Shown here: piece after piece, positions 50,315 to 53,615 of the stretch | How positions within the stretch are numbered: position 1 is the stretch's first letter | Layout: each line of letters begins with the position of its first letter | IMG/VR virus record: IMGVR_UViG_2654587772_000002 | Length of the DNA: 64,000 bases | Direction: 5' to 3' (one strand) | Source: a virus | Lineage: Duplodnaviria; Heunggongvirae; Uroviricota; Caudoviricetes | Made by a program: the position numbers and the translations under genes | The notes under the pieces: model-generated | The model's database searches: none | What the model saw: only the letters and a program-made list of their open reading frames with translations | Told to the model about the DNA's origin: nothing

Positions 50315-50893
50315 ATGTTGCGCTTTACTGAGGAAGAGTTTCAGGCTTTTAGTGAGCGTCGAAATAAGGGGCGGTCCAGGCCAAAAACCAAAAAGGATCC
50401 ATTCTTATCGCTTGCGCCGGTAAAAGAAGTTTCTCCACATGCGAAGGCACTTGCAGCACTTGCAAAGAACCCAGACCTGCGCGACGGAAATTGCGAGCAC
50501 TTCGAGCAGGTTTTCATTTTTGATTACTTCGAACGCAAGCACCCTGACATCTATGAGCTGTTGCATGCAACGCCTAACGGAGGGAAACGTTCAAAAGCAA
50601 CCGCCGGGAAAATGAAGGCTGAAGGGCAGAAAAAAGGTTATCCGGACATGAGTCTCGATAAAGCATGCGGTATTTATCACGGCATGCGAATTGAGCTTAA
50701 AGAACCAAATGGTAAAGCCCCGACGAAAGAGCAGATCGCCTGGATGCGCAGGCTTAGAGAGGAAGGTTACTACGTCGTTCTTGCGTACGGTGCAGAACAA
50801 GCGATTACCGCCATCCTGGAATACATAAGTCTTAAAAAGGGTGAGGCTATTGAGCATGTATTGAACGGCGATAAGTGGTTGCATGCTGCTTAA
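50315..50893 (+). CDS. VRR-NUC domain nuclease (PD-(D/E)xK fold)
   Basis: GYPDMSL ... RIELKEP ... TKEQIAWM ... YYVVLAYG pattern. Confidence 0.5.
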   Translation: MLRFTEEEFQAFSERRNKGRSRPKTKKDPFLSLAPVKEVSPHAKALAALAKNPDLRDGNCEHFEQVFIFDYFERKHPDIYELLHATPNGGKRSKATAGKMKAEGQKKGYPDMSLDKACGIYHGMRIELKEPNGKAPTKEQIAWMRRLREEGYYVVLAYGAEQAITAILEYISLKKGEAIEHVLNGDKWLHAA

Positions 50894-51089
50894 AATAATA
50901 AATTAATTAGTGCATGTACGCTCTTTGTGGTAGTGCACTTTAACATCGGGAGAATAATCGTGTCATCCAAGGTTAATTATGAGTCGCTGGCATCGGTCAT
51001 GCCGCGTAATGAACAGGAAACAGATGCTGTAGTGGACCCTGTAATCGCTGAAATGAATGCTCGCCTGGAGGCTGAATTTGCAGCTGAGA

Positions 51090-51719
51090 ATGAACATACC
51101 ACCCAGGGCGACTAGGACTGTTTTTTGTGTCGGTAGCGGTCCGTCACTCACTCGTGAGGACTGTGCTGCTATAGAAAAAACTGGCTGTTCAATCATCGCG
51201 GTTAACAATTCCTGGCAGATGTTCGATGACATTTATGCCTTATACGCCGGTGATTTGTCATGGTGGAAGCAATACGGTTCCACCATACCGGGAGGGAGGT
51301 TCCGCAAAGTGACAGCCAACCTGGCGGCGGCGAAATCATTTTCGTTGGAGTACAGGCGATATTGTGGACCGGCGGAAGGGGTAAATAGCGGCGCGCAGGC
51401 TATCAGTCTGGCTGCTGAATCAGGGGCTGAAGTAGTGGTATTAGTCGGCTATGACTGTTCTCTGCAAAACGGCCTTCATTGGCATGGCGCGCACCCTCAA
51501 GCACTACGGAATCCAACGCAGGTGTCTATTTCAAAATGGCAACAGCAGTTCCTGGATACCCGCAAAAAACACGCAGATTTACATATTTTGAATGCAAGTA
51601 GGAGCAGTGCAATTCAATGTTTCCCAAGAATAAATTTAGAGGCAGTGATCGCGTTATTATCGTCGGCAGTGGCCCAAGCGCCGCAAACTTTGTTGCGCCG
51701 CGCGGAGTGCCGATTATAG
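51090..51719 (+). CDS. hypothetical protein, possibly DUF115 / CstII-like nucleotide-sugar transferase fold
   Basis: VFCVGSGPS...IIAVNNS and VNSGAQAISLAAESGAEVVVLVGYD motifs; paralogue of the next gene. Confidence 0.3.
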   Translation: MNIPPRATRTVFCVGSGPSLTREDCAAIEKTGCSIIAVNNSWQMFDDIYALYAGDLSWWKQYGSTIPGGRFRKVTANLAAAKSFSLEYRRYCGPAEGVNSGAQAISLAAESGAEVVVLVGYDCSLQNGLHWHGAHPQALRNPTQVSISKWQQQFLDTRKKHADLHILNASRSSAIQCFPRINLEAVIALLSSAVAQAPQTLLRRAECRL

Positions 51720-52243
51720 CGGTCAATGGGGCCATCGACTGGCTTAACCGCGCTTCTTATTTTTTCACCCTTGATCCATCCCCAGACAATATGCGGCGCG
51801 TTGGTCGTGGCCGCCGTCGCCGTGGTGTTTGTTATTGCATGGCACTACCCGATGTTAAAGAACGTGAAGTCAGAGATGGCGTTCTGTGCTTCCGTCGTGT
51901 GGCTGAACGCGGCATGGAGCCAAAAAATACGAATTCTCCCGAGTGGTGGGCGTGGCGCTGGTCCGCACATTTCGGCCTTTGCGAAGATGAGAATGAAATT
52001 GCCAGCGGCAATAGTGCATATGGTGCTCTGAACCTGGCTTTCCATATCGGATTCAAACATGTAGCTCTGGTGGGCGTTGACGCTACGCAAGAACCACGCG
52101 TTCACTCCGGCGGCACGCCAAAAAATCTAAGTCACCTGCCTTTGTTATTCCAGTCTGCGCGTGAACAGATTGACGTTGTTTCATGCGGGAAAATGGGAGG
52201 TATTCCGCAGATGACTCTTAAAGAATGGCTGAAGAATACATGA
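51617..52243 (+). CDS. hypothetical protein, paralogue of the preceding gene
   Basis: VIIVGSGPS...IIAVNGA and [25 protein letters not shown] motifs; overlaps the upstream paralogue by about 100 nt. Confidence 0.3.
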
Positions 52244-52917
52244 TGGCACCCACAATTTATCACCGTATCGACGGTACCAAATACAGGAATGTCTGGGTTG
52301 TTGGTGATCTGCATGGTTGCTACACCAGACTGATGTCCGAACTCCATCGTGTGGATTTTGACCCGGCGCAGGATTTACTGATATCGGTCGGCGACCTTAT
52401 CGATCGCGGTACTGAAAATGTCGAATGTCTGGAACTATTGCAGATGCCCTGGTTCAGGGCAGTGATGGGGAACCATGAGCGGTTGATGCTCGATGCGTTA
52501 AGTCCTGATGGCAACGTGAATAACTGGCTAATGAATGGCGGACAATGGTTCTTCATGCTGGACACTGATCAGGAAATATTAGCCTGGGCGCTGGTGGAGC
52601 TGGTAAAGCGTCTGCCCTATATCATTGAGTTGAACACCGGGCAAGAAACTATCGTTATAGCCCATGCCGACTATCCGGATAATGAATACCAATTCGGTAA
52701 GGAGGTGCCGCTTTTCAACGTTGTCTGGGCGCGCGAGCGTATCAGTGATTCGATGGATGATATTGGTGGCGAAATTTCGGGCGCAGATCGTTTTATCTTT
52801 GGTCACACTCCGGTGAAAAACCCGAAGACATTCTGGAATCAGCAGTATATCGACACTGGTGCCGTATTTTGCGGAAACCTGACATTGATGAAAGTGAAAG
52901 GTGATGGTGCAGCATGA
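52240..52917 (+). CDS. serine/threonine protein phosphatase (lambda-phosphatase-like metallophosphoesterase)
   Basis: GDLHGC, GDLIDRG, GNHE motifs; C-terminal [14 protein letters not shown] as in lambda PPase. Confidence 0.85.
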
Positions 52918-53615
52918 AGATTGCTTTAGTTTTTCGCTCTGGTGGTGACTATAACGCTTCCGATGTGCAGTGGCTGGTTAATCAACTGCCAAAAGGCTAT
53001 GAAATTATTTGCCTGACAGACCTGAAGCGTTTACATGTACCTGGCGTCAAAGTTGTCCCATTGATCAACCAGTGGCAAAAGTGCCGTGGCTGGTGGGCGA
53101 AAATAGAGTTGTTCCGACCGGATATAACCGATGATCTGTTCTATCTGGATTTGGACACGGTTATTGCCGGTGATATACGCCCAATCCTAGAGCATCCACC
53201 AACCAGCTTCACCATGCTTAGGGATTTTTACCATCCACAATATCGTGGCAGCGGTGCCCTGTGGATACCAAATAGTGTTAAAGCGCATATCTGGAGTTCA
53301 TTCTGGCAAGATCCGGAAGGTTGGATTTCTCGTTGTGTCACTACTGAGTGCTGGGGTGACCAGGGGTTCTTACGAAAGGTTATGGGCGATGATACACCAG
53401 CATTTCAGGATCTGTATCCAGGATGGTTTGTAAGTTACAAGGCCGATGTTGTGGAACCTGGTTCAAAATATGCGAGCGCGCGTTACTCCAGGGGGAATGG
53501 GGCATTACCAAAGGACTGCCGAATAATCTTTTTCCACGGCAAACCGCGACCTCGCGAAGTGTCAGAGGATTGGCTTCCCCTTATCAGCTCGTTTTTTGAG
53601 CGAGAATCAGAATAA
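52914..53615 (+). CDS. hypothetical protein with DxD motif (possible glycosyltransferase)
   Basis: 233 aa; YLDLDTVI DxD-like motif; weak. Confidence 0.3.

Follow-up and report, generated by a model that had tools for sequence, protein, structure and literature searches.

We analyzed a 64,000-nucleotide stretch of DNA (the window; IMG/VR record IMGVR_UViG_2654587772_000002) that comes from a P1-like phage-plasmid, and within it a group of three genes, pmgO, pmgP, and pmgQ, to which a distant fourth, dbn, probably belongs and which has the makeup of a cassette for building a glycan. Positions 50000-55947 of the window share 98-99% identity with P1, P7, SJ46, and related phages, and positions 43999-55947 are collinear with P1 (AF234172), with zero indels and ~99% identity. 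The open reading frames (ORFs) at 50315-53615 match the annotated P1 genes pmgM, pmgN, pmgO, pmgP, ppp, and pmgQ base for base. An earlier reading of the window (the original prediction) had singled out these ORFs, together with those at 44124-45122 (dbn) and 55252-55758 (pap); all the ORFs that it named were found where and as it described them, and all are genes of P1. Ever since the P1 record was annotated, this block has been labeled with no more than the placeholder "putative morphogenetic function". The RefSeq and PHROGs labels of "alpha-2,3-sialyltransferase" for PmgO and "glycosyltransferase" for PmgQ are already public, the literature searched assigns no function to pmgO, pmgP, or pmgQ, and a scan against NCBIfam named only Ppp.

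The first two members of the cassette, pmgO (51057-51719, plus strand) and pmgP (51617-52243, plus strand), encode transferase-like proteins of the DUF115/Maf/GT42 type. They overlap by 103 nt (51617-51719) in different frames, and the overlapping DNA codes for the conserved GSGPS motif of PmgP in one frame and for the conserved C-terminal "CFPRxxLE" of PmgO in the other. In enterobacterial relatives the overlap is apparently 94 to 109 nt, as judged from naive ORF calls, and in one phage (P0051) the two genes are fused in frame. The annotated start of pmgO, ATG 51057, lies probably too far upstream, and the true start is probably ATG 51090, which fits the homologues, whose starts lie 2 to 9 residues ahead of the CxxSGPS motif; a start at this codon would shrink the overlap of pmgO with pmgN.

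The original prediction took PmgO and PmgP for paralogues. In a direct BLASTP comparison only the N-terminal VGSGPS...IIAVN stretch was matched (E 0.003). The family profiles, built from 29 relatives of PmgO and 32 of PmgP, were aligned by hhalign over 162 columns with a probability of 98% and an E value of 2e-13; the natural O::P fusion P0051 was kept out of the PmgO profile, as its inclusion gives a spurious E of 1e-50. Since the profiles align over this length, the two proteins are, by sequence, real distant paralogues. In both families, the columns that are invariant or nearly so include the motifs quoted in the original prediction (VGSGPS, IIAVN, and SG...LG...LVG.D). Across both, N39, D55, G120, and D122 (PmgO numbering) are invariant and N99-S100 nearly so, and S100 and D122 fall within the stretch aligned by hidden Markov models to the SG and GID motifs of CstII. 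The G-x-D motif is followed by invariant His residues (H130/H132/H135 in PmgO, H173 in PmgP). In CstII the catalytic His is His188; neither its position nor the lid domain of the Campylobacter CstI/CstII enzymes (GT42) is demonstrably conserved in PmgO and PmgP.

The AlphaFold2 models of PmgO and PmgP were confident, with predicted local distance difference test (pLDDT) scores of 87.5 and 94.3, respectively. In the fold comparison the best match of both was the Maf flagellin glycosyltransferase 5mu5 (14.1 for PmgO and 12.9 for PmgP), followed by the archaeal hydroxymethylpterin pyrophosphokinase (HPPK) MptE 8sd5 (11.4 and 12.0) and the CstI sialyltransferase 2p56 (10.7 and 10.6), with SteA, thiamine pyrophosphokinases, and GT29 sialyltransferases ranking lower. 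Both models thus have the fold of the Maf central domain, a modified, GT42-like GT-A fold. A joint profile of the two families matched CstII with an E of 0.0016, in two short stretches, CstI with 0.026, Maf with 0.094, and MptE with 1.4; the single-family profiles gave an E of 0.15 or no match to CstII. The GT42 match, in which GxGPS, SG, and G-x-D are common to both sides, is the only statistically supported match of the joint profile. The fold and joint-profile matches together support the DUF115/CstII-type assignment made in the original prediction.

The third member, pmgQ (52914-53615, plus strand), had been described as a DxD-motif protein, and it could be assigned more closely, as a GT8-like retaining glycosyltransferase of the GT-A fold. 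A profile of 26 PmgQ relatives searched against the PDB matched the Skp1 alpha-galactosyltransferase 6mw5 (E 1.5e-6) and the GT8 protein 5gvv (0.0045), and also glycogenin-2. D79 and D81 (D79-L-D81), G148, D149, and H208 are invariant in the 26 relatives and Q150 nearly so, all within the stretches aligned to 6mw5, 5gvv, and glycogenin-2; the DxD, D-Q, and C-terminal His of GT8 are thus all present. We take D79/D81, G148-D149-Q150, and H208 to be the metal-binding and catalytic motifs of the family. PmgQ has in common with LgtC, WaaO/WaaJ, glycogenin, the Skp1 alpha-galactosyltransferase, and GlyE the DxD, the GDQ, and a C-terminal H-G-x-P-R-P, but it is much shorter than the lipopolysaccharide (LPS) GT8 enzymes and belongs to a phage-specific clade whose members are often fused to PmgP.

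The fourth, dbn (44124-45122, plus strand), lies downstream of ban, 6 kb from the rest, and encodes a GT-B/GT4-like protein. Its score against PF00534 (Glycos_transf_1) was 25.1 bits, below the cut-off of 26.4, its E248-x7-E256 motif is invariant in three homologues, and the best match of its profile in the PDB reached only an E of 0.77. A Dbn homologue (E 2.6e-94) is encoded between those of PmgP and PmgQ in phage IME392, and another, 40% identical, lies 3 kb from the P-Q pair in Serratia. The link of this GT-B-like protein to the same pathway, proposed at the outset, is thereby backed by gene neighborhood, and dbn is probably a cassette member.

We then traced PmgP relatives in public contigs and cultured phages and typed their neighbors with profiles. 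With the P1 proteins as seeds, the locus scans yielded P1-like contigs only, while reseeding with distant PmgP relatives gave diverse loci; the scan for Dbn found only P1-like loci, its linkage in IME392 coming from a tblastn search of cultured phages. Start codons in the metagenomic loci are those of a naive ORF caller. The PmgO-PmgP-PmgQ block recurred in at least 10 unrelated phage backgrounds, variably accompanied by a small DxD protein of GT-A type with a weak Nucleotid_trans match (here called X), an extra glycosyltransferase, or a methyltransferase. In HK97-like prophages of Pseudomonas (L006 and L106) the order is capsid, O, P, Q, X, and head-tail adaptor, and in one of Ochrobactrum (L007 and L008) it is capsid, connector, P, Q, and head closure. 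The portal gene is followed by O, P, X, and Q in a P2-like contig (L109). Lysis genes, an O::P fusion, Q, and X are found in L003, a contig whose portal is of the SU10 type; a locus of the Citrobacter rodentium phiNP type (L108) has endolysin, a second putative lysis gene, O, P, Q, and packaging genes; and two further loci have P, methyltransferase, Q, and O (L113) or O, P, one more glycosyltransferase, X, Q, holin, and endolysin (L114). The cassette is also carried by the 116-kb coliphages IME392 and EP_H11 and by the jumbo phages XacN1, RAS14, CM1, and Xoo-sp13. In IME392 (vB_EcoM_IME392, MH719082; L258) the O, P, Dbn, and Q homologues are contiguous at 4516-7190, all annotated as hypothetical, and in XacN1 of Xanthomonas (L259, 6324-12220) and RAS14 of Stenotrophomonas (L260, 6374-10558) O-like and P-like genes accompany a methyltransferase+Q fusion. 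The named hosts of the cassette phages are all Proteobacteria. According to the P7 record, HdmB/PmgO resembles orf 7 from the Pseudomonas aeruginosa phage D3.

The Serratia locus mentioned above is a chromosomal island of S. plymuthica (L005, 2558-12526), in which the PmgQ and PmgP homologues stand between holin and lysozyme genes. Genes for a lipase and a lipoxygenase lie close by, as do a homologue of PmgO and that of Dbn; no intact prophage is obvious, and the island may have been domesticated for lysis or secretion.

An exhaustive profile search gave 556 clusters at E<=1e-3, and these included fusions of the Rosetta-stone kind. PmgP is joined to PmgQ in both orders (PmgP-PmgQ in P0221 and P0286, PmgQ-PmgP in P0308), and it also occurs as PmgQ-PmgP-methyltransferase, the last domain being S-adenosylmethionine dependent (P0270), as methyltransferase-PmgP (P0303), with a second DUF115 domain (P0341 and P0348), and as the PmgO-PmgP fusion already described. 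Homology, folds, conservation of the cassette, and fusions are in this way established. By gene content the functional unit is O-P-Q(-Dbn) together with variable transferases and methyltransferases, since these genes co-occur outside P1 while the nuclease and phosphatases of the P1 block do not, and the pattern is that of a glycan-assembly locus. New here are the conserved, fusion-linked cassette, the probable membership of Dbn, and the exclusion of the nuclease and phosphatases; the cassette itself belongs to phage-encoded glycosylation and does not make a new class.

The regulation of the P1 block can be read from its identity with P1. The Lpa-dependent late promoter LPpmgL (49960-49978, plus strand), which heads the pmgL operon, O26, an operator for the C1 repressor that lies in the divergent control region (49993-50009, minus strand), the C1 operator Oppp (50900-50916, minus strand), which controls the predicted sigma-70 promoter PpmgN upstream of pmgN-pmgQ, and the C1 operators OpmgRa and OpmgRb with the promoter PpmgR (53617-53682), where the operon ends and pmgR-pmgS-pap starts, are all annotated in P1 and have the same sequence in the window. 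Because of this identity, the pmgL-pmgQ block is predicted to be switched off in the lysogen and expressed during the lytic cycle. For PpmgN, the predicted -10 hexamer is CATGCT here (50882) and TATGCT in P1.

Taken together, the cassette probably adds a dispensable glycan to a phage or cell-surface molecule and not to DNA. Its most likely product, to which we give a probability of roughly 0.4, is a short O-linked glycan on at least one phage structural protein, that is, a dispensable coat of the virion, analogous to Maf-type flagellin glycosylation and to the glycosylation of mycobacteriophage virions. We envisage pmgO, pmgP, and pmgQ, which lie inside the lytic-cycle operon pmgL-pmgQ, as forming a horizontally mobile cassette with dbn, 6 kb upstream; the genes would be repressed by C1 in the lysogen and transcribed in the lytic cycle from the C1-controlled promoter and the Lpa-dependent late promoter. 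PmgO and PmgP would be minimal catalytic cores of ~200 aa, probably working as a pair, PmgQ a metal-dependent retaining hexosyltransferase of the GT8 type, and Dbn a GT4-like retaining transferase.

In favor of a virion acceptor, two HK97-like prophages that are unrelated to each other carry the cassette between the major capsid gene and those of the head-tail connector, and in the P2-like contig it comes after the portal gene. In XacN1 and RAS14 it stands directly upstream of a conserved protein that carries long mucin-like Thr/Pro repeats (1088 aa in XacN1 and 530 aa in RAS14), which is followed by the tail tube and sheath genes. Virions of XacN1 contain at least two glycoproteins positive in periodic acid-Schiff (PAS) staining, which the authors attributed to other ORFs (PMC5852040). 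Both Maf, the closest structural relative of PmgO and PmgP, and the GT8 enzymes nearest to PmgQ in sequence glycosylate proteins. The genes are also dispensable: in-frame deletions of pmgL, pmgM, pmgN, pmgO, pmgP, pmgQ, pmgS, dbn, ppp, and pap left plaquing and anti-restriction unchanged (PMC9024508), and in P1 CRISPR interference (CRISPRi) scored them as nonessential, apart from pmgN (PMC10695390).

In mycobacteriophages, as reportedly described by Freeman et al. in Cell Host Microbe in 2023, phage glycosyltransferases decorate capsid and tail proteins, and plaque formation is unaffected. Those phages differ from the present ones in having actinobacterial hosts and enzymes that reportedly belong to other families, with no DUF115 pair known; their virion glycosylation, moreover, is an experimental result, and that by the P1 cassette is a proposal. 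Maf proteins (for instance 5mu5 of M. magneticum) resemble PmgO and PmgP apparently in the conserved acidic/Ser/acidic positions and in acting in the cytoplasm, the activity of Maf requiring two acidic residues and a Ser (bioRxiv 10.1101/2020.06.03.131540). They differ in size, having 600+ aa with N- and C-terminal flagellin-binding domains, and PmgO and PmgP are a phage-encoded paralogous pair that always has a GT8-like partner and no link to flagellin.

As to the sugar, the superfamily of PmgO and PmgP transfers ulosonic acids activated by cytidine monophosphate (CMP), and in E. coli the likely one would be 3-deoxy-D-manno-octulosonate (Kdo). To our knowledge, E. coli K-12 makes CMP-Kdo and no other CMP-sugar; in particular, we know of no synthesis there of CMP-N-acetylneuraminic acid (CMP-Neu5Ac), the donor with which Cst acts on lipo-oligosaccharide. 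Maf enzymes are able to use the endogenous CMP-Kdo of E. coli BL21 (bioRxiv 10.1101/2020.06.03.131540). On these three grounds, the preference of the superfamily, the CMP-sugar supply, and the use of Kdo by Maf, the donor in E. coli is possibly CMP-Kdo; we infer donor sugars, O-P pairing, and acceptor alike. In the fully specified scheme, P1 and many other proteobacterial phages, among them jumbo, HK97-like, P2-like, and lambdoid ones, would use a PmgO/PmgP heterodimer, the GT8, and the GT4 enzyme to divert CMP-Kdo, an LPS precursor of the host, and build a Kdo-containing O-glycan on virion proteins; this is rather unlikely and less probable than a virion glycan of whatever composition. If true, no earlier virion-glycosylation system would be known from phages with Gram-negative hosts, and Ser/Thr-O-Kdo would have a natural example.

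Several observations weigh against a virion glycan. The fold by itself does not tell a glycosyltransferase from a pyrophosphokinase, the similarity of the models to MptE and thiamine pyrophosphokinases being near that to Maf. Against PF01973, the Pfam family of Maf, PmgO and PmgP scored 23.4 and 20.9 bits, below the gathering score of 34.6, with the family matched at E<1 by 28/29 and 32/32 of their relatives (best 3e-8) and with 44.1 bits by the distant relative P0258. Against PF01501 only 5 of the 26 PmgQ relatives gave a match, a weak one (best E 0.033), and PmgQ of P1 gave none. PmgO and PmgP, at 200 to 220 aa, consist of the catalytic core without the flanking acceptor-binding domains of Maf, and their neighbors are phage genes and not flagellar or nonulosonic-acid genes. 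None of the P1 virion proteins has been reported to carry a glycan; the paper on the P1 virion proteome makes no mention of glycosylation, which that study did not look for. No convincing Ser/Thr-rich acceptor tail was found in the cassette-adjacent capsid proteins, nor a convincing one among the ORFs of the window. The cassette adjoins lysis genes in four loci (L003, L005, L108, and L114), in IME392 it sits among DNA-metabolism genes, and its spread over phages with unrelated capsids and tails is easier to explain by a conserved host acceptor.

The last point leads to the second-ranked explanation, possible though less probable than a virion acceptor, in which the cassette works during lytic growth on LPS, or on some other glycolipid of the envelope, where the inner membrane faces the cytoplasm. 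PmgO and PmgP would then be WaaZ-like Kdo transferases, PmgQ a Waa-type GT8 hexosyltransferase, and Dbn a WaaG/WaaB-like GT4 enzyme, and a change in newly synthesized core would serve, for instance, to weaken superinfection or re-adsorption of the progeny. The receptor of P1 is the glucose of the LPS core. The set of families in the cassette (GT73-like?, GT8, and GT4) mirrors the core-assembly toolkit of the K-12 waa locus, with its known family assignments. A conserved host acceptor would account for the occurrence of the cassette among unrelated virion types, and its named hosts, all proteobacterial, are in keeping with it, as are the adjacent lysis genes in the four loci and the C1-controlled early promoter, which allows time to act. 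WaaZ (GT73), which transfers KdoIII in the LPS core of E. coli K-12, uses CMP-Kdo and resembles PmgP in the N-terminal "IIxxSGPS...IIAVNG" and a central "G.D"; the motifs common to the two also include "A..A.Q.AY.L.Y..I..G.D". When the profiles were compared by hhalign with an alignment of 11 WaaZ sequences from a genome scan, PmgP gave a full-length match of 40% and E 2.9e-4 and PmgO one of 23%, both below significance, and the O::P fusion has a faint precomputed match to PF27901 (WaaZ_KDO_III). WaaZ, on the other hand, has a large insertion and is chromosomal. Also against an LPS acceptor, the outer-membrane LPS already made is not replaceable in one latent period, the cassette proteins have no membrane anchor or lipid-binding feature, several phages place the cassette inside head/tail blocks or beside the mucin-like protein, and the deletions had no adsorption or plaque phenotype.

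Improbable, and third in rank, is that PmgO and PmgP are ATP-dependent enzymes of the MptE/thiamine-pyrophosphokinase type, which would activate a small molecule for transfer by PmgQ. Their sole Pfam match is to a family named MptE-like, PF01973, but this family also spans the Maf glycosyltransferase domain, and Maf is the best fold match. The joint sequence profile mildly separates the two proteins toward glycosyltransferases, favoring GT42 (E 0.0016) over MptE (E 1.4), and the partners that they constantly have, glycosyltransferases and methyltransferases of the sugar type, are those that mark a glycan pathway.

Hypermodification of phage DNA or RNA with sugars, one branch of the original prediction and less likely than its surface-glycan branch, comes last and is very unlikely. 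Phages are well known to encode glycosyltransferases for hydroxymethyl-pyrimidines, a VRR-NUC nuclease is adjacent in P1, and the IME392 cassette has its DNA-metabolism surroundings. Yet neither the operon nor the surroundings of the cassettes examined showed a hydroxymethylase, a TET-like dioxygenase, a DNA kinase, or any gene for a hydroxymethyl-pyrimidine route, the known DNA glycosyltransferases fall in other families, and the nuclease does not accompany the cassette elsewhere. Ordinary restriction enzymes routinely cut the DNA of P1, and host DNA is packaged by this phage in unmodified form. Because the cassette genes are dispensable in the P1 deletions, with anti-restriction unchanged, modification of DNA lost further ground.

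P1 is among the phages most used in genetics, and once pmgO, pmgP, pmgQ, and probably dbn are seen as one glycosylation cassette, conserved and linked by fusions, some four of its orphan genes become a single testable hypothesis, for which deletion mutants already exist (PMC9024508). If the virion is the target, phage virion glycosylation would extend from mycobacteriophages to phages of Gram-negative bacteria, with a bearing on immune recognition of therapeutic phages; if it is LPS, the cassette would represent a lytic-cycle form of receptor remodeling. The minimal DUF115 pair could also serve glyco-engineering as transferases of Kdo or other ulosonic acids.

The original prediction had further placed the nuclease, the Ser/Thr phosphatase Ppp, and the phosphatase Pap of the haloacid dehalogenase (HAD) superfamily in the same pathway, and a single pathway from pmgM to pmgQ plus pap, though in keeping with the co-transcription of pmgM-pmgQ given in the P1 record and with an arrangement kept in P1, P7, SJ46, and D6-like phages, was rejected as very improbable, as co-occurrence outside P1 was confined to O, P, Q, and Dbn. 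Among the typed loci, PmgL and PmgM stood beside the O-P-Q cassette in P1-like genomes only. Ppp was absent between P and Q from all non-P1 loci and from a distant P1-like contig of 101 kb (L107, IMGVR_UViG_2883489344_000002), whose order is pmgL-M-O-P-Q-R-S, and the non-P1 loci that were searched gave no homologue of Pap next to the cassette. Since PmgM, Ppp, and Pap were never found with O-P-Q in the loci outside the P1 lineage, they are by gene content mere neighbors of the cassette, as is PmgL, and judging by the gene orders ppp is an insertion into the cassette that is confined to the P1 lineage. In the 101-kb contig the PmgO homologue is split over two overlapping ORFs (6466-7013), by a frameshift or a sequencing error.

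The identities proposed for two of these neighbors were correct. PmgM (50315-50893, plus strand) is a VRR-NUC nuclease of the PD-ExK type: residues 77-180 match the solved VRR-NUC structure 4qbl (E 3.5e-17), the protein carries "GYPD...IELK" (PD...ExK), and the score against Pfam VRR_NUC is 21.3 bits, just under the gathering score of 23.8. It falls in phrog_5702, a Holliday junction resolvase family, and is probably a junction resolvase. Ppp (52225-52917, plus strand) is a Ser/Thr metallophosphatase of the lambda/NinI type, with 59.1 bits against PF00149 (Metallophos; cut-off 21.5), an E of 1.6e-81 against PRK11439, and the GDLHG, GDLIDRG, and GNHE motifs; the P1 record gives 64% identity to the lambda phosphatase. 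Pap (55252-55758, plus strand) is a PNKP-type HAD phosphatase that scored 46.1 bits against PF25109 (HAD_PNKP; cut-off 27.6), a polynucleotide-phosphatase domain and no sugar-phosphatase family. It is labeled "acid phosphatase" in P1, and Ppp has a weak match to bacterial Pnkp; a role of Pap and Ppp in the repair of nucleic acid ends is conceivable from their domains.

The two remaining genes of the block are pmgL (50067-50312, plus strand), which encodes a DksA-like zinc-finger protein (phrog_54, E 1.6e-12), and pmgN (50960-51115, plus strand), an annotated P1 ORF of 51 aa with a good Shine-Dalgarno sequence that lies between pmgM and pmgO and was missed in the original prediction. The reports on pmgN conflict, as it was essential by CRISPRi and dispensable by in-frame deletion (PMC10695390 and PMC9024508), a discrepancy that may reflect a polar or off-target effect.

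A scan of defense and anti-defense genes with PADLOC returned nothing beyond coiled-coil noise for PmgS. The homology to P1 ends at 55947, where the segment from pmgT to about humD is swapped for a type I restriction-modification system encoded on the minus strand (hsdR, 56023-59139; hsdS, 59262-60473; hsdM, 60470-62032). The same replacement was seen in phages vB_EcoM-673R5 and phi456, and in the window the restriction-modification genes are followed by an ORF of the size of Doc (126 aa, 62430-62810).

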